A stretch of 11,126 nt of DNA from a virus (lineage: Duplodnaviria; Heunggongvirae; Uroviricota; Caudoviricetes): IMG/VR virus record IMGVR_UViG_2617270938_000004; one strand, written 5' to 3'. Below the pieces are notes generated by a model. It searched no databases. It was not told the origin of the DNA and saw only the letters and a program-made list of their open reading frames with translations. The first letter of the stretch is position 1; each line of letters starts with the position of its first letter. Positions 1 through 11,126 of this stretch are shown here, one piece after another. The position numbers and the translations under genes are program-made.

Positions 1-1194
1 ATGATCACCGACACAAAGCTCAGGAAGGCGCTCGGCAAGAAAAGAGATGATATCGAGATTATTTCTGATTCGCACGGGCTCAACGCCAGAATCAGCCAGG
101 CCGGAAAAATATCATTTTTCTATCGGTATCGCTGGGCCGGTAAAGCGGTAAAACTCAATGTTGGTGATTATCCTGCAATGAGTATCACCCAGGCAAGAGA
201 GCGTCGCCAACAATTCAGAAACTGGTTAACTGAGGGACTGGATCCGCGAGAGCAGGTGAAGCTGGATAAGCAGACCCGACAGGAAGCGATGTCCGTTGCC
301 GAAGCGTTCAATTACTGGATTGAAAGGCACTGTATCGCTAACGGGCTAGTTAAAGTCGATTACTATCGCCAGGTGTTTGAGAAACATATCGCCGAACCGA
401 TGAAGAATGTCAAAGTCGATAACACAGCGAAAATGCACTGGATCAACGTCTTCGATTCTATAGAAAGCAGGGTGATGGCTCATTACATGCTTTCGCTGTG
501 CAAACGGGCGTTTAGGTTCTGCGTTAACAGAAGTGTGATCGCCTCAAACCCACTCGAGGGATTACTGCCATCTGATGTCGGGCAAAAGCCTAAAAAGAGA
601 ACTCGCAGGATGGACGATGACGATCTGCGCAAAATCTATCAGTGGTTGAAAAGCCATATGTCGATAGAGTCCGTTTTCCTGGTGAAATTTATTATGCTTA
701 CCGGATGCCGTACGGCTGAGATTCGACTTAGTGAGAGATCATGGTTTCGATTGGATGATAATGAGTGGGTCGTGCCTGCGGGCAGTTATAAAACTCGGGT
801 ACATATTAGAAGGGGACTCTCAGACGCCGCCGTTAACCTGGTCAGAAATCACCTCAAGAAAATAAACACCAATCACCTGGTGACTTCACAACGTAAAATT
901 GATGGCGGGATCAAAGATTCGCCCGTTCATTCACCTGTGGCATCCAATTACGCCCGTTCTATTTGGAATGGAACAGGTATGGCAGAGTGGTCGCTTCATG
1001 ATATGAGGCGGACGATAGCCACAAATCTCTCTGAGTTAGGTTGCCCGCCGCACGTAATTGAAAAGCTGCTCGGGCATCAGATGGTGGGGGTTATGGCGCA
1101 TTACAACCTTCATGACTATATCGATGATCAGAAACACTGGCTCCGCGTTTGGCAGAGCCATCTTGAAGAGATCATCGGAGAGCCCTTCAGTTAA
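1..1194 (+). CDS. int: Tyrosine recombinase / phage integrase, P4-type
   Basis: 397-aa ORF. N-terminus '[33 protein letters not shown]' resembles the arm-binding domain of P4-family integrases. Catalytic-domain signatures are present: 'TGCRTAEI' (Arg), 'HDMRRT' (His-x-x-Arg), 'LLGHQ...MAHYNLHDY' (His/Tyr). Stop TAA at 1192-1194. Upstream RBS and att site are outside the window. Confidence 0.9.
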
Positions 1195-1388
1195 TTTATC
1201 TTCTTTTTATCCTCCCACTCTTTGATTGACTCAGAGCGCCAGCGGTTAGGGTTGCCGGGCCAGTCAGGGGGTGGGAACGGGCATACGAAGCCCCGAGGCA
1301 TTGTGTCTGCACTTTGCCATGACCAAAGGGTTTTGCGTGAAATTTTGTAGCGACTGGTCAGGTCTGACGTTACCAAAATATCATCCAT
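1191..1388 (-). CDS. alpA: AlpA-family prophage regulator / excisionase-like HTH protein
   Basis: The ATG at 1388-1386 gives a 65-aa protein '[59 protein letters not shown]', which fits the AlpA pattern (HTH, then FP-P, then W-x-x-E-x-x-W). The ORF-track start at 1433 is a TTG with no RBS; the ATG at 1388 is preceded by a purine-rich 'AGAGAGAG'. The stop overlaps the int stop. Confidence 0.7.
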
Positions 1389-1429
1389 AGCTCTCTCTAG
1401 TTGCCCGTTCGGGCCATTCAAAATCTTTT

Positions 1430-1672
1430 TCAACCAACCTGCCCGGGCAGGGAGCGGAGACGGCGCATGCCGGTCATCGCTGTGGCCACGTAGCTCGCCT
1501 TTCGGTTCACCACCTCCACCCAGACTTTCACGCCTTCAACCTTCACCGTATAAGTCTCTTTCATCTTGCTTCGCCCATAGTCGCCATATGTTTGCAAGTG
1601 AGCTGCCAGCGCGATGTCGCATGCTTGGCGAGCTAAAGGTGATTGCTTACTTCCTCGATTGATCAGTCGCAT
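1430..1672 (-). CDS. Hypothetical small protein (80 aa) in the recombination operon
   Basis: ATG at 1672-1670 preceded by a strong Shine-Dalgarno 'AAGGAG' with a roughly 6-nt spacer (reverse complement of 1673-1684). It sits between the RecT-like and AlpA-like genes on the same strand. No family recognised by eye. Confidence 0.55.
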   Translation of the reverse strand: MRLINRGSKQSPLARQACDIALAAHLQTYGDYGRSKMKETYTVKVEGVKVWVEVVNRKASYVATAMTGMRRLRSLPGQVG

Positions 1673-1710
1673 ATAATCTCCTTGAGGGAGGGTTACCCCT
1701 CCCGGTCTCG

Positions 1711-2829
1711 TCAGGCCACGTATTCCGGTTTCATATCCGCCAGGGTGATGCTGAATTGATCGTGCAGTTCATCGCCTAAGTGACGCTTTGAAGATGCAAG
1801 CATGCGCTCGGCTTCAGCGAACCGTTCGGCTGCATGCGGCTCGTCGGGCTGGGGCAGGGATTTAATAGCCTCCTCAACCTTGTTGCGTGCATCCACTAGG
1901 TAATAACGCTTTACGGCTTTGTTTTTCAGCTCGGTGAATAGTGCGGATCCCAGCGTAGCTTTCGCCGTTTCAATGTCGGCACGCAGCGATTTGGCGCTAT
2001 CCACGTCCTGAGCAGATTCGATGCGTTCGCGGAAATCATCGGCAAGAGAGTCGACATTTACCGACGATTCCTGTGCGCTTTGCGTGGTTGTGACGGTGTC
2101 ACCTGAGATATCAGCCAGGCTAACGCGTTGCGGCGTTGGGTTGATCTCTTTTTCTGTGCGCTGTTCAATCTCATCAGGGGTGTACACACCAAGAACAACT
2201 GCAGGGCAATACAGGCGCGCCCAGTATTTGAGTGCCAGATAAGCGATCTGCTGTTTCGGGTTTGATACCCAAAGTGGAGAATTACGTGTGATTACGCTGG
2301 AGAGGAAAACAGGCTCTCCCCAGGTGATATCACTTTCACCGCGAATAACGGCACCTACCCGTACCGACAGTCCTTGTTCATCAGCACTTTCCCAACCGCG
2401 TACCATTTCTTTCTTGTCGTACGTCCCGCCACCTTTCGCAGGCTTTTTAACGGTTATCTCGCGGCTGCTGGCACATTTCGACCAGTCGCCCTCGTACTCA
2501 TAGTGAAAGCGGCCAACGATGGCGTTTGAGCTGGAGATCACCGCATTAACCAGTTGCGCTTCGTATCCCAGGACACCGTTAACCAGGTGCGTCTTTTGCG
2601 CCACGGCGTAAGGGTTCATACCCCACTGCATCGCCTGCATGATGATGGCCATGCAGTCTGCCGGATTGCCGCGGAGGTGCTCAGGCACCGTTACGGCTGC
2701 CTGTGCCATCAACCCGGCGACAGACTGAAGCTGGGTTAAAGCCTGCACGTTGAAAATGGCATTGCTGGCTGAGATCGTGTTTGGAGTCTGCTGTTCAGCG
2801 GTTACGATATTCGTGTTTTCCATCATCAT
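1711..2829 (-). CDS. RecT/Bet-family single-strand annealing protein
   Basis: 372 aa. Segments 'GNPADCMAIIMQAMQWGMNPYAVAQKTHLV' and 'LWVSNPKQQIAYLALKYWARLYCPAVVLGVYTPDEIE' parallel lambda Bet as I remember it ('...FIALLIVANQYGLNPWTKEIYAF...', '...PWQSHPKRMLRHKAMIQCARLAFGFAGIYDKDEAE'). RBS 'AAGGGGA' lies directly upstream of the ATG triplet at 2829-2821, and the upstream gene's stop is only 5 nt away. Confidence 0.8.
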   Translation of the reverse strand: MMMENTNIVTAEQQTPNTISASNAIFNVQALTQLQSVAGLMAQAAVTVPEHLRGNPADCMAIIMQAMQWGMNPYAVAQKTHLVNGVLGYEAQLVNAVISSSNAIVGRFHYEYEGDWSKCASSREITVKKPAKGGGTYDKKEMVRGWESADEQGLSVRVGAVIRGESDITWGEPVFLSSVITRNSPLWVSNPKQQIAYLALKYWARLYCPAVVLGVYTPDEIEQRTEKEINPTPQRVSLADISGDTVTTTQSAQESSVNVDSLADDFRERIESAQDVDSAKSLRADIETAKATLGSALFTELKNKAVKRYYLVDARNKVEEAIKSLPQPDEPHAAERFAEAERMLASSKRHLGDELHDQFSITLADMKPEYVA

Positions 2830-2834
2830 TCCCC

Positions 2835-3704
2835 TTATGCCTGAGTACGCAGCGCTTCAAGGCGGCGCAGGTCGAAGTCGTTCAGTTCGTCGGTGTAGTC
2901 AGCAGTGATTGGCGCTGGCCATTCACCTGTGTCGAATCCGGTTGCGATATTGCGCATCGCTTTGCGGTACTCGAGCATACCCAGCTCCAGTAGTTCAGCG
3001 GATGCCTCGATGATGGCGATCCAGTGGTAGTTCTCGTCTTTGTTGACGAAAATCCAGAAGAACTGATCCAGCGCTGCGGTTTCGCAGTACATAGCCGCGC
3101 TCAGGTGATAATCACGTTCAATAATTTCCCGGTGTAGCCTGGCGCGCAGGCTTTCCTGCTTAACATTCCACATGCTGATGGTTTTCAGGTCAGCACCGAT
3201 ACGCACGCCGTCTAGGTCGATCTCAAGGTCAGGGCGCACACGAACTTCCAGTCCCGTCTCCTCGTCAAAGCCAAAGTAGCTCACCTCAACGGCGCGGCTC
3301 GGGTGGGTTAGCAGCATGCCTGCGGTCGGGTGCGAGAGCAGTGCTGACTGAATTGCCTGCGCGGTGGCAAGTTGCTGGTGGGTAACCAGCACTTTCCCTT
3401 CCGGGTTGTTGCGCCACGCATCGAGCAGCTCGTCGGCGAACACTGCATCTGGTTTGACTGCCTTCACGGCCTGAATCAGATCGGCCTTCGTGCCAGAGAC
3501 TTTCAGCGGTTGCAGCTTCTGAGCTTCCTGCGCGACCAGGTCAGGATTGATAATCGCAAGTTGTTCGAGTAGTGCGTCGCGGCTGCCGCTGGTTTTAATC
3601 TGCGCTGGCAGGGTGGCGTTGTACTCTTTGATGCACGCCTTCATTGCTGTTGCTGTCTTCTTCTGATCTGCATCGATACGTTGGAATTCAGCTGGCAGCG
3701 CCAT
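2835..3704 (-). CDS. PD-(D/E)XK-superfamily exonuclease (RecE/YqaJ-like partner of the annealing protein)
   Basis: Motif 'VEVSYFGFDEETGLEVRVRPDLEIDLDGVRIGADLKTIS' fits the E...PD...(D/E)xK nuclease core. The gene is immediately upstream of, and co-oriented with, the RecT-like gene. Start placed at the ATG at 3704-3702 ('MALPAEFQ...'); the ORF track extends to a GTG at 3764, which would overlap the divergent GP46-like gene. Confidence 0.7.
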   Translation of the reverse strand: MALPAEFQRIDADQKKTATAMKACIKEYNATLPAQIKTSGSRDALLEQLAIINPDLVAQEAQKLQPLKVSGTKADLIQAVKAVKPDAVFADELLDAWRNNPEGKVLVTHQQLATAQAIQSALLSHPTAGMLLTHPSRAVEVSYFGFDEETGLEVRVRPDLEIDLDGVRIGADLKTISMWNVKQESLRARLHREIIERDYHLSAAMYCETAALDQFFWIFVNKDENYHWIAIIEASAELLELGMLEYRKAMRNIATGFDTGEWPAPITADYTDELNDFDLRRLEALRTQA

Positions 3705-3709
3705 ATAGT
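3681..3709 (+). promoter_or_regulatory. Candidate sigma70-like promoter (TTGGAA-N17-TATAGT) reading toward the baseplate genes
   Basis: 'ttggaa' at 3681-3686 and 'tatagt' at 3704-3709, separated by 17 nt, about 50 nt upstream of the ATG at 3759. Pattern match only. Confidence 0.2.
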
Positions 3710-3758
3710 TCTGCGCCGTTTCATCCAGGCTAACGGCGTACTGACATCTGAGAATGAT

Positions 3759-4121
3759 ATGCACACGGCCATAATTATCAGTTTGTTTACTGACGGACTG
3801 GCGCGCGCTGATGATGATTATGAAGGAACTGACCGCCGCGGCTGGTGGGGGGATCTGGACAACGACCGGAATATTGGCTCAAGGCTGTGGCTACTGCGGC
3901 GTGAAAAACTGACGCGCGAAGTGGCGATGAGAGCTGAAGATTATGCCGAAGAGGCTCTGGCCTGGATGAAGTCGGATGGTATTGCAGCAGCGATAGAGGC
4001 TCAGTCAGAGATTGTTTTCCCGAATAGGCTGAACCTCATCATCCGGTATTTGCCGCCGGCGGGGGACTGGCAGGAGTTCAAATTCTTCTGGCTATGGGAG
4101 CAACTGAATAATGCCATTTAA
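3759..4121 (+). CDS. Phage GP46-family baseplate protein (Mu gp46-like)
   Basis: 'AIIISLFTDGLARADDDYEGTDRRGWWGDLDNDRNIGSRLWLLRREKLT' matches the GP46 family signature (SLFTD...RRGWWGD...GSRLWLL). First ATG in frame is at 3759; the ORF-track start at 3681 is a TTG. The N-terminus may be shortened relative to family members. Confidence 0.7.
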   Translation: MHTAIIISLFTDGLARADDDYEGTDRRGWWGDLDNDRNIGSRLWLLRREKLTREVAMRAEDYAEEALAWMKSDGIAAAIEAQSEIVFPNRLNLIIRYLPPAGDWQEFKFFWLWEQLNNAI

Positions 4122-5259
4122 GCGGAAAACACTGAGCGAGCTCCGGCAGGAGAATCGCCAGTTTATGCAGGCAGAGCTTGAAAGTGTTGGCGCGCTGTTA
4201 CGGTTTGGCAACCTTAAGGTGCTCGCTGATATGGATGCGGGCATGGCCCATCTGCACTACGCCTACCTGGATTATATTGCCCGTCAGAGCACGCCTTTCA
4301 CCTCTACCGATGAGTGGCTTGCCGGATGGATGGCGCTAAAGCAGATTTACCGAAAAGCCGCAACGGCAGCACGCTCTCCGGCGGCGACCGTTACCGGAAC
4401 GCCGGGGAAAACACTGTCAAAAGGGGCGGTGTTAAACCGTGATGATGGTTACCAGTACACAACCGATGATGCCATAACGATAAACACTGCTGGCAGTGCG
4501 TCGGTTGCTGTAACAGCGGTTTTGCCGGATATCACAGACGATGTGACAGGAGGAGGCACTTCCGGAAATGCCGATGCTGGCACCATTCTTACACTGGATG
4601 CTAATGCCCCCGGCATAGACAGCTCGGTTACGCTGATTGAGCCCGCCACCGGCGGCGCCAACATTGAAAGTGAAGAGGATTTCCGATTACGTGGTCTGCT
4701 GGCGTATCAGAATCCCCCGCAGGGCGGGAGTGACACTGATTATAAAAGCTGGGCTTTATCCGTGTCGGGGATCACCAGGGCATGGATACGGCGCCGGGGG
4801 ATGGGGCCGGGTACCGTGGTGATTTACATCATGTGCGACGGCGATGATAAAACCAATCATGGATTCCCTGCAGGAACTGACGGTGTCTCTCAACTGGAAG
4901 AGTGGGGGGCTGTAAAAGCCACCGGGGATCAGGGGAGAGTTGCCGATTATATGTATCCGCTTGCGCCGGTTACCTCCCTTAACTATGTCTGCTCTCCCAT
5001 CGAACGCGTTATCGATTTTGAAATAAGCGGGATATCTGATGCCGACAGCGCAACGACTGCGGCCATTGCTGATGCGATTGACGGGGTATTGTTTGAATCT
5101 GCTAACCCGCTCGGCACAGGGAAAATTTACCTTTCAGATCTCAACCGTGCGATAGGGGATGTTGCCGGTACTTCAGGTTATATCCTTGTGTCGCCTTCTG
5201 CGAATATTGAGCCGGGAGTTGGGGAGCTGGCTGTTCGTGGTGAGGTGAACTACACATGA
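4111..5259 (+). CDS. Baseplate J-like protein (Mu gp47 / e14 JayE-like)
   Basis: 382-aa ORF whose start overlaps the GP46-like gene by 11 nt. Order GP46-J-DUF2313 is as in Mu-like and e14-like tail modules. Judged Baseplate_J-like by overall similarity; HMM confirmation needed. Confidence 0.8.
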   Translation: MPFKRKTLSELRQENRQFMQAELESVGALLRFGNLKVLADMDAGMAHLHYAYLDYIARQSTPFTSTDEWLAGWMALKQIYRKAATAARSPAATVTGTPGKTLSKGAVLNRDDGYQYTTDDAITINTAGSASVAVTAVLPDITDDVTGGGTSGNADAGTILTLDANAPGIDSSVTLIEPATGGANIESEEDFRLRGLLAYQNPPQGGSDTDYKSWALSVSGITRAWIRRRGMGPGTVVIYIMCDGDDKTNHGFPAGTDGVSQLEEWGAVKATGDQGRVADYMYPLAPVTSLNYVCSPIERVIDFEISGISDADSATTAAIADAIDGVLFESANPLGTGKIYLSDLNRAIGDVAGTSGYILVSPSANIEPGVGELAVRGEVNYT

Positions 5260-5930
5260 GCCTTTTCTCAACAGACGATTATCAGAAGGCACTGCAGGCG
5301 CTTATCCCCACCGGCCGAGCGTGGACACGGGATCCAAAAGCTGTTCAGGCCGCTGTACTGCGGGCCATTGCGGCCAGTTTCCAGCGAAGTGATAACGACG
5401 CACTTGCATTGCTGCGCGGTGCCTTTCCAAAAACTGCGACGATTATGCTCACCGAGTGGGAAAAAACACTCGGCTTACCTGATGATTGCTCAATTGGCGA
5501 AGTGGATACGATTGCGAAGCGTCAGTCTGCCATTGTATCGAAACTCATCAGCACCGGCGGGCAGTCAAAGAGCTATTTCATCAGTATTGCCGCAGCAATG
5601 GGTTATACGATTTCGATTAAGGAATACCGGCAGGCGCGTGCTGGCTTATCGGTATGTGGTGACGGGCTAAATGGGGATGACTGGCCATTTGTCTGGCTGG
5701 TAGAGGCAGAAGACACAACGATAACTTATGCCCGTGCAGGTCTGAGTTATTGCGGCGATCCATTACGCTCCTGGGGTAATCGCCAGCTTGAGTGCCGGAT
5801 AAATGCCCTTGCCCCCTCATACACCCTGGTGAAATTTGGCTATATCTATTTCGGTTTTAACGATGAGGGGGTTTACGAAGTCACGCCTGAGTTTGCCAGA
5901 ATATTTGATATCGCTTCCGGTTACGTTTAA
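5256..5930 (+). CDS. Phage tail protein, YmfQ/DUF2313 family (Mu gp48-like)
   Basis: 224 aa with an ATGA start/stop overlap with the upstream J-like gene (ATG 5256-5258, TGA 5257-5259). N-terminus 'MSLFSTDDYQKALQALIPTGRAWTRDP' resembles the YmfQ family. It lies directly upstream of a tail fibre gene. Confidence 0.8.
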   Translation: MSLFSTDDYQKALQALIPTGRAWTRDPKAVQAAVLRAIAASFQRSDNDALALLRGAFPKTATIMLTEWEKTLGLPDDCSIGEVDTIAKRQSAIVSKLISTGGQSKSYFISIAAAMGYTISIKEYRQARAGLSVCGDGLNGDDWPFVWLVEAEDTTITYARAGLSYCGDPLRSWGNRQLECRINALAPSYTLVKFGYIYFGFNDEGVYEVTPEFARIFDIASGYV

Positions 5931-5956
5931 TTCAGACATTTAAAAAGAAGGTTTAT

Positions 5957-6742
5957 ATGAGAAAAGTTGGCAGTACAACTGACACCGCTGATGCTAATGG
6001 TGAATACACTAATGGTAATGTCGCTAATGGTATTTCACCGACAATAATTAATGCTGAGATGATGAATACCTTTCAGCGTGAGCTGGTAAACGTTGTTGAG
6101 GGCGCGGGGCTTGAGCTTGATCCTGATGATGATTCACAGGTTCTTAAAGCGATTGGTGGCGGTCGCCTGCTTAATATTGTCACCTTTACTAAGTCAGGGA
6201 CTTACACTCCAACTAAAGGGACGAAAAGAGTGCGGGTGAAAGTTTGGGGAGCGGGGGGAGGTGGCCAGAATGCTCCAGTTAGTGTGGGCGCATCTGGAGG
6301 TTGTGCTGGTGGATTTTCGGAAGGGTTATTTAATATTTCTGATAACGAAACTATATCTGTGACGATAGGTACTGGTGGCAGTGCTGTTGCTGCTGGTGTC
6401 TCGTCTAAAGGCGGGAATGGTGGTGATACAAGGTTCGGGAGTTTAATCTCAGCTACTGGAGGGAGTGGTGGCGGGGCTACAGTTCCTGCTGGAGGTATCG
6501 GAAGTGGCGGGAACATTTTAAATATTACTGGCGGAATATCTCAAGGTGGTCTGTATTATGGTTCTGATGCTTTTATTGGCGGGGCTGGGGGATCTGCATT
6601 TTCATCAACGGGTGGCAATGGCCACTTCGGTAGTTCTGGCGATGATGGCGGTTTCCCCGGCTCAGGTGGTGCCGGGGGGAATGGTAACTATTCATCAGGA
6701 AAAGGAGCGAATGGTTTAGTTTACCTTGAAGAGTTTTCCTGA
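5957..6742 (+). CDS. Tail fibre protein with conserved N-terminal fibre domain and glycine-rich C-terminal region
   Basis: 261 aa. RBS 'GAAGG' 5 nt before the ATG. N-terminus 'GISPTIINAEMMNTFQRELVNVVEGAGLELDPDDDSQVLKAIGG' matches the conserved tail-fibre N-terminal motif seen in P2/Mu/e14-type fibres. C-terminal 170 aa is Gly-rich ('VKVWGAGGGGQN...GGSGGGATVPAGGIGSGGN...'). Codon usage is AT-rich relative to the upstream baseplate genes. Confidence 0.75.
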   Translation: MRKVGSTTDTADANGEYTNGNVANGISPTIINAEMMNTFQRELVNVVEGAGLELDPDDDSQVLKAIGGGRLLNIVTFTKSGTYTPTKGTKRVRVKVWGAGGGGQNAPVSVGASGGCAGGFSEGLFNISDNETISVTIGTGGSAVAAGVSSKGGNGGDTRFGSLISATGGSGGGATVPAGGIGSGGNILNITGGISQGGLYYGSDAFIGGAGGSAFSSTGGNGHFGSSGDDGGFPGSGGAGGNGNYSSGKGANGLVYLEEFS

Positions 6743-7812
6743 TTATTTTTGCTTTGAGCGTCCGCCCTTATTTTTGCTCTAATTTTAATTAGTGGCTTTT
6801 CTATTAATATTACACAAACGATCCCAAGTGCAATTGATATTGGGTAGCCTAATAAAAAGATGGATAAGCCACGATTTTCACCACCAATAGCAAGCCATGC
6901 TAGAAATCCACCAAAATATTGACAAAGAAAAATTGGATAGGCCAGGTCACCAAACCACTTGAGTATTTTCTCAAGATGTATGTTTGTCTTTATTTTTAAT
7001 AATACCAGGGTTGTAAACAATGCTATTACATTATTGGTGTAGTAAAGTATTATGTTGTACTGACCTAATGCATTAATTGTATATAAATGCCAATTGGTAA
7101 TAAAAATCCCGATGCAAATAAATGTTATTAAAAAAGCTTTGTGTGGAGAAAGATACATAGCTTTGAACTTTCTATGGGCAAAATAACCCAGAGAACCCAT
7201 GCTAAAAGGAAGTGTTGCAGCAAGGAATGGGAAATACGCCATATCAAAAGAATGGTGTACTACATATACGTAAGCATGATAAAGCAGTGAAAGCAGAATC
7301 GACGTAATGGCTGTAAATTTATTTCGGGCTATGAAAAGCCACAATAAAAAATAACATGTTATCTCAACACCCACTGACCATGATGATGTGACTATTCTGA
7401 ATCTATTACCATCAATAGCAAAGTGATAAATGGATGAAAAGGCACCGAATGGATTTGCTACAGCATTATCAGAAAGGAAAGCCCAGGGGAAGATTAAGAG
7501 GTTTCCTAATAAATCTCCAGGTAAGAAATTGCCTGTCCAGTTTGAGTGGAATTCCTTTGCGGATGGAATTAATTTTATAATAAGAAAGCCCATGACGAGA
7601 AAAAATATATATGCCGGGAATAACCTCAGCATTCTATTTTTCCAAAACATAGAGAAGTTGAACTTGTATGTTTCATGCAAAATGTATGTTATTAAAAAAC
7701 CACTAATAACATAGAAGCAATTCACTGCAAAGTTGCCAAGTGCAGGTATGCGAGCCGTTAAGTGAAAAGCAATGACGCACGATGCCAAAAAAAACCTTAT
7801 TAGGCCAAGCAT
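6721..7812 (-). CDS. Acyltransferase family 3 integral membrane protein (O-antigen / polysaccharide O-acetyltransferase-like, Oac/OafA-type)
   Basis: 363 aa and highly hydrophobic. Family hallmarks: 'FHLTARIPALGNFAVNCFYVISGFLITY' and 'FWKNRMLRLFPAYIFF', comparable to the 'G-x-x-GVD-x-FFV-x-SGFLIT' and 'R-x-x-R-I-x-PxY' motifs. The 3' end overlaps the convergent tail fibre gene by 22 bp. Confidence 0.85.
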   Translation of the reverse strand: MLGLIRFFLASCVIAFHLTARIPALGNFAVNCFYVISGFLITYILHETYKFNFSMFWKNRMLRLFPAYIFFLVMGFLIIKLIPSAKEFHSNWTGNFLPGDLLGNLLIFPWAFLSDNAVANPFGAFSSIYHFAIDGNRFRIVTSSWSVGVEITCYFLLWLFIARNKFTAITSILLSLLYHAYVYVVHHSFDMAYFPFLAATLPFSMGSLGYFAHRKFKAMYLSPHKAFLITFICIGIFITNWHLYTINALGQYNIILYYTNNVIALFTTLVLLKIKTNIHLEKILKWFGDLAYPIFLCQYFGGFLAWLAIGGENRGLSIFLLGYPISIALGIVCVILIEKPLIKIRAKIRADAQSKNNQENSSR

Positions 7813-8075
7813 TATTTTATCTCCGCGCCAATATCGCGCATTTTATTTATTACATTGTTAAGTTGCTCATCAGACAGAACAAGCTGAGCTGCAATATAAA
7901 ACAGTATGTGTCTTGACATTACCCTGGGGCTCTCTCCGCCAGTGTATTTCCGCCATTGGCTATCGCTGGCTACACCTGCGAGCCCTGCCATTTGGTTTCC
8001 GGAGTAATTTAGTGCGGATTTCAGTCTGGCTAAATCTTCCTGCGTTGGAGGGGTGTATTTATTTATTAAAATCAT
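7812..8075 (-). CDS. XRE-like helix-turn-helix DNA-binding protein, co-transcribed upstream of the acyltransferase
   Basis: 87 aa from the ATG at 8075-8073. 'TQEDLARLKSALNYSGNQMAGLAGVASDSQWRKYTGGE' fits a Cro/C1-type HTH. Its stop overlaps the acyltransferase start in a TAATG arrangement (7810-7814, minus strand). An 87-codon ORF in AT-rich DNA is unlikely by chance. The ORF-track start at 8099 is a GTG without RBS. Confidence 0.55.
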   Translation of the reverse strand: MILINKYTPPTQEDLARLKSALNYSGNQMAGLAGVASDSQWRKYTGGESPRVMSRHILFYIAAQLVLSDEQLNNVINKMRDIGAEIK

Positions 8076-8107
8076 TCTCTTATTTAACCGTTTAAACACG
8101 TAAGGCG

Positions 8108-8136
8108 ATGTTAGCCCTGAAGGGGCGGGGCGTCAA
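8108..8136 (-). promoter_or_regulatory. Candidate sigma70-like promoter (TTGACG-N17-TAACAT on the minus strand) for the HTH-acyltransferase operon
   Basis: Reverse complement of 8131-8136 is 'TTGACG' and of 8108-8113 is 'TAACAT', with a 17-nt spacer, about 33 nt upstream of the ATG at 8075. Pattern match only. Confidence 0.2.
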
Positions 8137-8176
8137 TCTTAATTGCTTCATTGAAAAGATGAAGACAGGAACAGGT

Positions 8177-10360
8177 ATGGACAAAAGATATAATACCGGC
8201 AATCCAAGACCTTCAAATAGCATGAAGGATCTGAATGATAACGCCCTGGCGTACGATGATTTCCTGAACAGCGAAAGAGATACTTTTATAGATCGTTTTG
8301 GTAACGCCCAGGATACGATAATTGGGGCTACTAAAAAAATGGCAGCTGCTACCGACGCTGTTATTGATGAAGCCCGCCAAAACCTGATCCCTCTGAGCAA
8401 GCAATACATGACGCTTGCTGATGCACAGGCAGATATTGCTAATATCCCCGAGGGGAGCACTACTTATTATCGCAGCCCGGATGACAGCGCCCTCGCGATC
8501 GAGGTCATGAACGTTGGCGGAACGTTGCAGCCAACCGGTCGCAGGATGATTTCTGCTGGATATGTTGACGCGCTGAGAGATTTGGTTGCCACTGAACTGG
8601 CGAAAATTATGGCTTTCGGTGCTGCTCAGACTACCGATGCATACCCAGATATTGCTGAGCTCATTCTTGATAGTGTAGGGCATGCCGTTTATCGCCGTTA
8701 TACCGATGGCACGAGCCAGTTTCCGGCATTGATGATTGGTTCAGGGATTGAGCTTGTGCAAATTGCAGGTGGAGGATTTGTCTGCCAGATGCGCGCCACT
8801 GGTGAAGAAATATTTAACATTTCTGCCCTTGGCAATCTGACACATGGCAGCCTGACCACGTGGTTTGCTGATGATGACAGTGTCAGTGACTATTCTGAAA
8901 TACATATGGACGGACAGGGGAGAATTTTTCGGCGAGTTCGCACAGATGGTACCGTGGAGCAGCTGGGCGATGACACACCTGATGATGACGCCTCTGAATT
9001 CCCAATGGTTGCTTCAGTTGATGGAAATATCATTGCGGTAGATGGCAGCGATGTAACTCAGATCACGAACGACTCCGGAGTTTCAAATATTGCGCCAGTG
9101 GCATATGCGGAATTTTTGCGTTATTTGTCGAATGTCAGCGGCAACTACATCACTTATCGATCCACTTATGACGGGAATTACCGGGCGCGAGAGTCATTGC
9201 GCTTTCTTATTCACCTGATTATAACTGGTCAGTCTCTTGCTGCAGGCGGTTCAACGCAAGCACAAAGCCCTGTAACGACAACAGCGCAGGCAGATTACGG
9301 CATACTCTCGTTTGAGACCGGCCCGAAAGTCGATTTTAAGTATGACACGCTGAATGAATCGCTCCTTGAGGCTGTCATCCCATGCCGGGAGAATGCTGGG
9401 ACGCGGCCTGGACAGGAGTCGCCATCAAGCGGTATGGCGTTTAAAATTCATGATCTCACCGGGCATACGGTTCTGGTTTCCGATGCGTGCTCATCCGGTA
9501 CTGCAATCGCAGACATTTCATCCGGTTCAGCGACTTTTACTGGTGCAACGAAAATGATTCAGTCAGCTGTAGCCATGGCTGAAAAGTTGGGTATGCAGTA
9601 TGTTCCCGTAATGGTGCTTATCCACGGCAACCAGAATGCAGCAGCAGGCACATCTATATCCAGTTATCGCGCCGCAATGGAGACTCTCCGTGCTCAGTAT
9701 GAGTCTGTCATTAACGCGGCAACAGGAAAAAGCCAGTCGCTTCACATGTTTGTAGGCCAGTTATCTAATACCATTCCATACGGCGGAACTGCCGGTTCGA
9801 CCAAAACTAATAACATCGGTATCGCACAATATCAGGAAGCCCGTGATAACGCATTAATCCATCTTGCCAGCGCACAGTATGCCCGCCCGTATTCAGACGG
9901 TGAGCATCTGACCAGCGCAGGGTATCGGACAGAAGGCGAAGTTATTGGCGCGGTGGTTGGTGGGTGGCTGAATGACAATACAAAATCCGCGCTTGTGCCG
10001 ATAGAGTCTGGTGTTGTGCAGTCAGGAACCACAATCACTATACCAGTGGCGGGTTGTGTTGGTGATCTCGTGATTGACACCTCGAGGGTTACCGATCCAG
10101 GCAACTACGGCTTTGTCCTGACCGGGGCCACAATTGCTTCGGTAGCCGTTAGCGGCAGCGGATCAGCAGCAAAAATAGTTATCACCAAGACCGATTCTAC
10201 CACTGCGACGGCGATATCTTATGCAAGCCAGGGGATTGCCGGACAAAACCCCGGCCCTGTAACCGGTTCGCGCGGGTGTATCAGAGATTCCCAAACAGGG
10301 ACGTCACTATCCGGCCTGCCTCTCTATAACGACCTTTGCGTTTTCTCCATCCAGCTTTAA
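8177..10360 (+). CDS. Putative tail fibre / tailspike-like protein with SGNH-hydrolase (sialate-O-acetylesterase-like) domain
   Basis: Start placed at the ATG at 8177 (AGGA 6 nt upstream); the ORF track begins at 8108. Catalytic-type motifs: 'LIITGQSLAAGGS' (GQS at 9227-9235, the SGNH block I serine), 'VLIHGNQNAAAG' (block III-like), 'DGEHLTSAGYRTEGE' (DxxH block V; Asp 9896-9898, His 9905-9907). No N-terminal signal peptide. C-terminal 130 aa is Thr/Ser/Gly-rich and looks beta-rich. It sits in a tail-fibre locus. Confidence 0.7.
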   Translation: MDKRYNTGNPRPSNSMKDLNDNALAYDDFLNSERDTFIDRFGNAQDTIIGATKKMAAATDAVIDEARQNLIPLSKQYMTLADAQADIANIPEGSTTYYRSPDDSALAIEVMNVGGTLQPTGRRMISAGYVDALRDLVATELAKIMAFGAAQTTDAYPDIAELILDSVGHAVYRRYTDGTSQFPALMIGSGIELVQIAGGGFVCQMRATGEEIFNISALGNLTHGSLTTWFADDDSVSDYSEIHMDGQGRIFRRVRTDGTVEQLGDDTPDDDASEFPMVASVDGNIIAVDGSDVTQITNDSGVSNIAPVAYAEFLRYLSNVSGNYITYRSTYDGNYRARESLRFLIHLIITGQSLAAGGSTQAQSPVTTTAQADYGILSFETGPKVDFKYDTLNESLLEAVIPCRENAGTRPGQESPSSGMAFKIHDLTGHTVLVSDACSSGTAIADISSGSATFTGATKMIQSAVAMAEKLGMQYVPVMVLIHGNQNAAAGTSISSYRAAMETLRAQYESVINAATGKSQSLHMFVGQLSNTIPYGGTAGSTKTNNIGIAQYQEARDNALIHLASAQYARPYSDGEHLTSAGYRTEGEVIGAVVGGWLNDNTKSALVPIESGVVQSGTTITIPVAGCVGDLVIDTSRVTDPGNYGFVLTGATIASVAVSGSGSAAKIVITKTDSTTATAISYASQGIAGQNPGPVTGSRGCIRDSQTGTSLSGLPLYNDLCVFSIQL

Positions 10361-10373
10361 AGGACTGTAAATC

Positions 10374-11126
10374 ATGACTACCCGCTTTTATATTGATAAC
10401 GGTGTGACAGCCACGCGTTACCTTGACACTTACCCTTATCCAAACGACATCACCCAACTTCCGGCTTTAATACCGGGGATTATCCTGCAGGCTGATTTTG
10501 ACGTAAAAGACACTGCATCATTAACCAGAAACCGGGTTGGAGCTGCTATGTCCGTTGTTGGCTCTCCTGTTCTTGGTGATTACGGCGTCAGCCTCACTGA
10601 GGCTAACCACCTGGATACAAACATCGACATAGCAGCATATAACGGCAGCGATCTGACAATGGTGACAATAGCTGTCCATCCAGGGGTAATTGGTGCTGTT
10701 GTGGGCCGGGTGCAGATGAACGCGCCACAGCGTACTCGTGGTACACAAACTACGGCTACAGCGTGGAGAGCTAAATGGTTGACTGCAGCAGGTGCAGCAC
10801 AACAGGCCGACCTTATCCCGTCTACTGCCGCAATTGATGGCGAAATGGCAGTCAGTCGGTTTGTGCGAGACAACGGTAGCGGATCAATGCTGACTAAGCT
10901 TGATCTGCCACGCACATCACAGTCAGCAACCCGCACCGCAGCGACGACTCCTTATGCTGTACCTTCGTCAAAAATTCTGCTGGGCGGTTCTGTCGAGGGA
11001 GCCACGACTGCCACTATCTTCATGCGGGCATGCCTGATTGTATCTAGGGCAATAACGGATGTTGAAATGGCAACTATTTACACCTATTACAAAAATTATT
11101 ATCAGCTGAAAGGCAAAAACATTTAA
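10374..11126 (+). CDS. LamG-like (concanavalin A-like lectin fold) domain protein, putative carbohydrate-binding tail accessory protein
   Basis: 250 aa. RBS 'AGGA' 9 nt upstream, immediately after the esterase stop. C-terminal 'ILLGGSVEGATTATIFMRACLIVSRAITDVEMATIYTYYKNY' resembles the LamG/Laminin_G_3 terminal motif (iG....F.G.IDEvRiYnRALs..Ei..lY). Assignment by motif only. Confidence 0.5.
   Translation: MTTRFYIDNGVTATRYLDTYPYPNDITQLPALIPGIILQADFDVKDTASLTRNRVGAAMSVVGSPVLGDYGVSLTEANHLDTNIDIAAYNGSDLTMVTIAVHPGVIGAVVGRVQMNAPQRTRGTQTTATAWRAKWLTAAGAAQQADLIPSTAAIDGEMAVSRFVRDNGSGSMLTKLDLPRTSQSATRTAATTPYAVPSSKILLGGSVEGATTATIFMRACLIVSRAITDVEMATIYTYYKNYYQLKGKNI

Follow-up and report, generated by a model that had tools for sequence, protein, structure and literature searches.

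What is the role of the small protein encoded directly behind the esterase tail fibre in IMG/VR virus record IMGVR_UViG_2617270938_000004 (Caudoviricetes), and does it belong to that fibre? The stretch of this record that was analysed (11,126 nucleotides, hereafter the window) ends in a gene for a 250-amino-acid protein with a concanavalin A (ConA)-like, or LamG, fold (the target gene; positions 10374-11126, + strand, stop codon included), next to a gene for a 750-amino-acid tail fibre with a SASA-type O-acetylesterase domain (8108-10360, + strand). The answer that we consider probable, if well short of certain, is that the target protein is a stand-alone LamG-type sandwich that binds the esterase fibre as its dedicated accessory subunit, like gp15 in the tailspike of cyanopodophage Pan3.

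The gene itself is real. Its open reading frame (ORF) starts with ATG and comprises 250 codons, with the TAA stop as the final triplet of the window; 13 nt lie between the fibre stop (10360) and the target ATG (10374), and a Shine-Dalgarno sequence AAGGA read from the sequence (10360-10364, + strand) overlaps the fibre stop codon 9 nt 5' of the ATG. Escherichia, Klebsiella and Raoultella have 51 homologues of ~250 amino acids, with one more in the lytic Klebsiella phage vB_KpnM_VIK251, and the ratio of nonsynonymous to synonymous substitution rates (dN/dS) is 0.07-0.12, measured against the six homologous loci with estimable dS. Within E. coli the gene is rare, occurring in 3 of 5426 complete genomes. 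An earlier note, made on the window from its letters, had described a LamG-like gene directly 3' of an esterase fibre: the ORF, its Shine-Dalgarno sequence, its homologues and its dN/dS all confirm that observation.

The same note had assigned the protein to the ConA-like lectin/LamG fold, and structure prediction and fold search bear this out. With A1, a 27-sequence alignment of the target subfamily, as input, AlphaFold2 gives a model (pLDDT 91, pTM 0.87) in which beta-sandwich strands span residues 36-223 (the jelly-roll core; 10479-11042, + strand), followed by a C-terminal helix at 229-244; the N-terminus is poorly modelled, with pLDDT 46-56 over residues 1-20. The two-sheet jelly-roll superposes on solved ConA-like/LamG domains, the best structural matches being non-catalytic lectin domains, and a Foldseek search of BFVD finds many stand-alone phage proteins of 230-260 amino acids labelled ConA-like or LamG.

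At the sequence level the resemblance is narrower. A LamG_3-type signature at residues 196-240 (10959-11093, + strand; hidden Markov model and hhalign matches), of the form ...ILLGGS...FMRACLIVSRAITDVEMATIYTYY, runs into the C-terminal helix, and in an exhaustive profile search giant proteins bearing LamG_3 domains were matched solely via target residues ~185-247. Comparison of A1 with the five LamG_3 domains of one such protein, P0071, by hhalign (87%, E = 4e-6) covers only 45 C-terminal columns. The caveat in the earlier note, that the LamG call rested on the C-terminal motif, thus holds for the sequence-level match of the target; its suggestion of a different beta-sandwich fold is not borne out by structure prediction and fold search. 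A sister subfamily (A4; ~245 amino acids, 25-30% identical) aligns with LamG_3 domains over 153 columns (91%, E = 9e-7), and hhalign of A1 against A4 (99.8%, E = 2e-27) shows the two subfamilies to be homologous. No Pfam family matches the target at E <= 1, and Laminin_G_3 (PF13385) is found in 0 of 27 subfamily members at E <= 10; there are likewise no matches in NCBIfam or, by phmmer and profile search, among PDB sequences, and the only PHROG matches, phrog_4390 (the notable one) and phrog_29436, are both of "unknown function". The target family has its fold and C-terminal signature in common with Laminin_G_3, but lies below the Pfam threshold; it is further set apart by ~30 conserved residues ahead of the sandwich, by a helix at the C-terminus, and by consisting of stand-alone phage proteins tied to one fibre type.

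The N-terminal extension (residues 1-33; 10374-10472, + strand) precedes the first sandwich strand. Mean column conservation at residues 13-33 is 0.82, compared with 0.60-0.75 over most of the domain, placing this segment among the most conserved of the protein although it is unpacked in the model; this combination makes it a candidate docking segment. It cannot be aligned between A1 and A4.

What ties the target protein to the fibre? Close homologues of the target gene occur at 23 loci, in two of which the target copy is cut by a contig end. In all 21 loci where both genes can be read whole, the target homologue lies directly 3' of a fibre gene of 700-890 codons, whose product, beyond residue ~100-180, shares 38-100% identity with the window fibre. 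In 20 of these loci the two genes are 8-13 nt apart, and the remaining one (L016 in our numbering of loci) has an upstream alternative start. The N-terminus of the fibre and the surrounding tail genes, by contrast, vary from locus to locus: contexts include the Mu-like prophage of E. coli 20KM2222, P2-like V-W-J-I-fibre-X arrangements, and the rV5-like Mydovirus VIK251, where the pair is gp51/gp50. At 17 loci a further ORF of 64-71 amino acids lies 3' of the target gene.

The pairing extends well beyond these close relatives. Members of A4 are again found directly 3' of fibres homologous to the window fibre (hhalign of the distant fibres against the window fibre family: 99.5%, E = 1e-22) in seven distant loci, and it persists down to ~28% fibre identity. 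These pairs are gp48/gp49 of Burkholderia phage KS10, gp25/gp26 of Klebsiella prophage ST147-VIM1phi7.1, 00480/00470 and gp26/gp27 of Serratia phages Kashira and Serbin, and those of the lambda-like Klebsiella phage KpF5 and of Serratia loci L033 and L035; the distant contexts include one Serratia siphoviral prophage and one tail cluster resembling those of gene transfer agents (GTA-like). Overall, the tail types with the pairing are Mu-like, P2-like, lambda-like, other siphoviral, rV5-like and GTA-like.

A further comparison is offered by one E. coli Mu-like prophage backbone in which the fibre anchor stays constant and the downstream gene varies with the C-terminal module of the fibre. Where the module is a GDSL_2-type SGNH esterase, a member of the target family lies downstream (E = 1.6e-42); where it is CotH, the downstream gene is unrelated; and for the genes after the SASA fibre of E. 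coli HS (266 amino acids) and after a "TolB" fibre (267 amino acids), comparison with the target family gave no significant similarity in either direction. Because the downstream gene changes with the C-terminal module while the anchor does not, the partner tracks the esterase module rather than the baseplate. The four prophages of this comparison (L029-L032, from E. coli B18271, ES2, HS and Ec1117, at ~5178-8460) occupy the same backbone site, with anchors 77-93% identical and C-terminal modules that by annotation or match are TolB-like, CotH, SASA or GDSL_2, each followed by its own downstream gene of 250-370 codons.

The window fibre itself, which matches phrog_4201 ("tail fiber"), runs from an N-terminal anchor through a repeat or shaft region and a SASA-type SGNH esterase to a C-terminal beta-sandwich. 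The anchor (residues 24-153; 8177-8566, + strand) is exchangeable: it is 77-93% identical to those of fibres annotated as CotH, TolB, GDSL and SASA, and is common to other E. coli prophage fibres with unrelated C-terminal modules. The longest ORF starts at 8108, but the later start given by RefSeq, the methionine at 8177, is favoured, because other fibres are homologous only from about residue 24. The esterase domain (residues ~365-628; 9200-9990, + strand), recognized by its SGNH blocks and fold, has the catalytic Ser, Gly, Asn and Asp-x-x-His of SASA-type SGNH esterases. All four blocks (I, II, III and V) are invariant in the fibre alignment, with S376 in GQS, G464, G507-N508 and D597/H600; the catalytic residues Ser376, Asp597 and His600 are encoded at 9233-9235, 9896-9898 and 9905-9907 (+ strand). 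Downstream of the esterase is the C-terminal sandwich (9992-10357, + strand; strands in fragment residues 290-411), which ends in an almost invariant tail, ...GSRGCIRDS...PLYNDL... (invariant columns 715-746), a motif that also aligns in Pan3 gp14. A protein of Klebsiella pneumoniae (P0118) matches residues 340-750 of the fibre (9125-10357, + strand) with 100% identity, which points to a recent cassette exchange between Klebsiella and E. coli.

A structural precedent for the pair comes from Pan3, whose tailspike entry (PDB 9VYH) contains gp14 and gp15 deposited together, three chains of each. Pan3 gp14 is an esterase tailspike homologous to the window fibre, gp15 has by fold search the same fold as the target protein, and the gp15 gene (15537-16349) lies directly downstream of that for gp14 (13298-15535; GenBank ON968454). 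The two systems are thus alike in gene order, fibre homology and partner fold. Sequence homology between the target and gp15 was not found (hhalign <= 1% against A1 and A4, both with gp15 alone and with a profile of the only five close gp15 sequences, which is shallow, Neff 1.6), so that their relation rests on fold, gene order and the homology of their partners. They also differ in setting: Pan3 is a podovirus with a P22-like head-binding N-terminus on its spike and a cyanobacterial host, whereas the window fibre has a Mu-like myovirus anchor and belongs to phages of Enterobacteriaceae. An esterase spike with a ConA-fold subunit is in this sense an already known kind of assembly; what is added here is how widely the pairing occurs, as a general feature of enterobacterial phages whose tail types are very different, and we found no description of it in the searchable literature. 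The earlier note had proposed a carbohydrate-binding partner of the fibre or an alternative receptor-binding tip. This interpretation is supported in part, in its fold and in the partnership with the esterase fibre, for which the invariant pairing across very different phages is strong support and PDB 9VYH a further one; the place of the protein on the fibre might be lateral, as an accessory subunit, or at such a tip. Carbohydrate binding by the target protein is probable by analogy, and physical binding to the fibre and its stoichiometry would likewise follow the Pan3 example.

A second comparison is with NanS-p (vb_24B_21), a sialate O-acetylesterase of Shiga toxin (Stx) prophages (PDB 6YP6), in which a SASA domain and a C-terminal lectin-like jelly-roll form one chain; a contribution to glycan binding has been attributed to this fused domain (PMC10462455). 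NanS-p is not a tail fibre, whereas the esterase here belongs to one and the lectin-fold protein is encoded by a separate gene. Natural fusions of LamG-like and esterase domains were sought among the distant matches of the target, and none had a SASA domain; the large matches are bacterial proteins that resemble adhesins and combine several domains, of LamG_3, Big_9 and cadherin-like types.

Could the target protein instead be an assembly chaperone? The assembly proteins P2 gpG, Mu U and lambda Tfa and the tip adhesin gp38 of T2/S16 are, like it, encoded directly after a fibre gene and specific for the distal module. An analogue of gpG, U or Tfa would aid trimerization or folding of the esterase fibre, and the mature virion would either lack it or not need it. 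The target gene occupies the position of the gpG gene in P2-like prophages, its product is specific to the C-terminal module of the fibre, and its translation is tightly linked, and probably coupled, to that of the fibre gene; module specificity and such translation are typical of Tfa-type chaperones. These assembly proteins and adhesins nevertheless have an unrelated fold and no sequence similarity to the target protein, which is a lectin-type sandwich. Homology to a tail-fibre assembly chaperone, which the earlier note had named as the finding that would overturn its proposal, did not turn up in Pfam, NCBIfam or PHROG, neither with Caudo_TAP (PF02413) nor with a PHROG tail-fibre-assembly family or any other chaperone family. 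Pan3 gp15, with the same fold and gene position, was deposited within the tailspike entry.

Further evidence on this point comes from the Klebsiella fibre 164_08-KL2, of the sister subfamily, which according to PMC13123978 was produced alone in E. coli in high yield and hydrolysed p-nitrophenyl acetate, its trimeric state not being reported there. The fibre of KpF5 is 95% identical to it (a link made from the first 399 residues of 164_08), and in KpF5 a member of the target family lies directly downstream. Activity of 164_08-KL2 without a partner, together with the presence of one in its KpF5 relative, weighs against an obligate folding role. Taking both sides together, a chaperone seems to us unlikely, though it is the strongest of the alternatives.

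An independent small receptor-binding protein or spike, located on the baseplate or on another fibre and linked to the esterase fibre only genetically, is less probable still. Many stand-alone phage ConA-like proteins of 230-330 amino acids exist, and some, as in S-PM2, carry a virion structural annotation, which would suit such a role. Against it, the target gene co-transfers with the C-terminal module of the fibre, the family spans Mu-like, P2-like, siphoviral and rV5-like baseplates, and within one baseplate type a change of fibre module brings a different gene in its place. A ConA-fold enzyme, such as a glucanase or polysaccharide lyase degrading capsule or O-antigen alongside the esterase, is very improbable, given that the best structural matches are non-catalytic, that the GH16 motif ExDxxE is absent from a sequence with only four Glu, and that the residues invariant in both A1 and A4 (N53, G63, P65, G204, R225 and E231, the last being the sole acidic one and part of the C-terminal motif) all lie in structural motifs, leaving no conserved candidate active site common to the two subfamilies.

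If the target protein is, as we favour, an accessory subunit of the esterase fibre, the following picture can be proposed. Fibre shaft, esterase, C-terminal sandwich and 250-amino-acid gene, usually with the 64-71-amino-acid gene in the close subfamily, would form a portable cassette that is grafted onto varied N-terminal anchors, on Mu-like, P2-like, lambda-like, other siphoviral, rV5-like and P22-like tails. Fibre and partner would be made from tightly spaced and probably translationally coupled genes, and the partner would bind the trimeric fibre in roughly equal numbers, after gp14 and gp15 in the Pan3 entry; docking may use its conserved, unstructured N-terminal segment. In the virion it would add a lectin-type surface beside the esterase, by which the fibre could hold an O-acetylated surface polysaccharide (O-antigen, capsule or similar) during deacetylation, much as in NanS-p.

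Some features of the surrounding DNA may be noted. The 64-71-amino-acid ORF, which has no family match, is 42% identical even between Mu-like and P2-like contexts; copies lie at 15137-15331 of L001, just past the window end, and at 6779-6988 of L003. The match of the window to the Mu-like prophage of E. coli 20KM2222, which is intact, is confined to positions 3731-11126 (99.9%), with the junction inside the gp46 gene; the genes in positions 1-3730 include those for an integrase and a RecT-like protein. The prophage to which the tail module belongs may be truncated or mosaic. In L001, a gene for a Pin/Hin-type recombinase (15797-16345) adjoins yciI-tonB on the downstream side of the cassette; a search for an invertible fibre segment near the Pin-like recombinase of E. 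coli 20KM2222 found no convincing inverted repeats.

Upstream of the esterase fibre, after a YmfQ/P2-I-like gene, the window encodes a 261-amino-acid glycine-rich protein (5957-6742, + strand; PF21722 Gly_rich_2 and PHROG tail fibre families), by which the prophage encodes a short fibre besides the esterase fibre. The 3' end of its gene overlaps by 22 nt the convergent ORF of an O-acetyltransferase-like protein (6721-7812, - strand; Acyl_transf_3, Pfam E = 3.6e-15, and a PHROG O-acetyltransferase family), which sits on the opposite strand between the short glycine-rich fibre and the O-acetylesterase fibre. An Acyl_transf_3 gene also adjoins the cassette in a Serratia prophage (L034, 7778-8782), and one prophage thus encodes both acetylase-like and deacetylase genes. 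Divergent from the fibre gene is a 95-amino-acid ORF (7812-8099, - strand) that weakly matches a helix-turn-helix family (phrog_20491, E = 3e-30); its product may regulate the moron or the fibre operon.

How far might the pairing alter the view of these fibres? SGNH receptor-binding proteins akin to the window fibre include G7C gp63.1 and the Klebsiella prophage fibres 164_08-KL2 and 174_38-KL55. In G7C, gp63.1 is accompanied by a second large tailspike, gp66, instead. In the searchable literature SGNH esterase fibres are treated as single-gene receptor-binding proteins, and its searchable portion on those of Klebsiella phages mentions no LamG, concanavalin or lectin and describes no downstream partner. 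One recent study ranks them with the receptor-binding proteins that Klebsiella prophages carry most often and shows that they predict capsule type (PMC13123978). It is possible, and we put it forward tentatively, that SASA/SGNH esterase fibres are two-subunit machines, in which the lectin subunit recognizes the glycan and helps to set host range while the fibre modifies the receptor. If so, they would amount to a phage haemagglutinin-esterase with its functions split over two genes, and the lectin gene would be an overlooked specificity determinant, required for native activity in vitro. If every such fibre has a lectin-fold subunit, host-range prediction and genome-wide association studies based on a single receptor-binding protein gene would miss part of the determinant, recombinant fibre alone may lack native affinity for its substrate, and engineering or swaps should move both genes jointly. 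For the ~250-amino-acid "hypothetical proteins" of many Escherichia, Klebsiella, Raoultella, Serratia and Burkholderia phages and prophages, the pairing provides a testable role and a link to a solved cyanophage tailspike.
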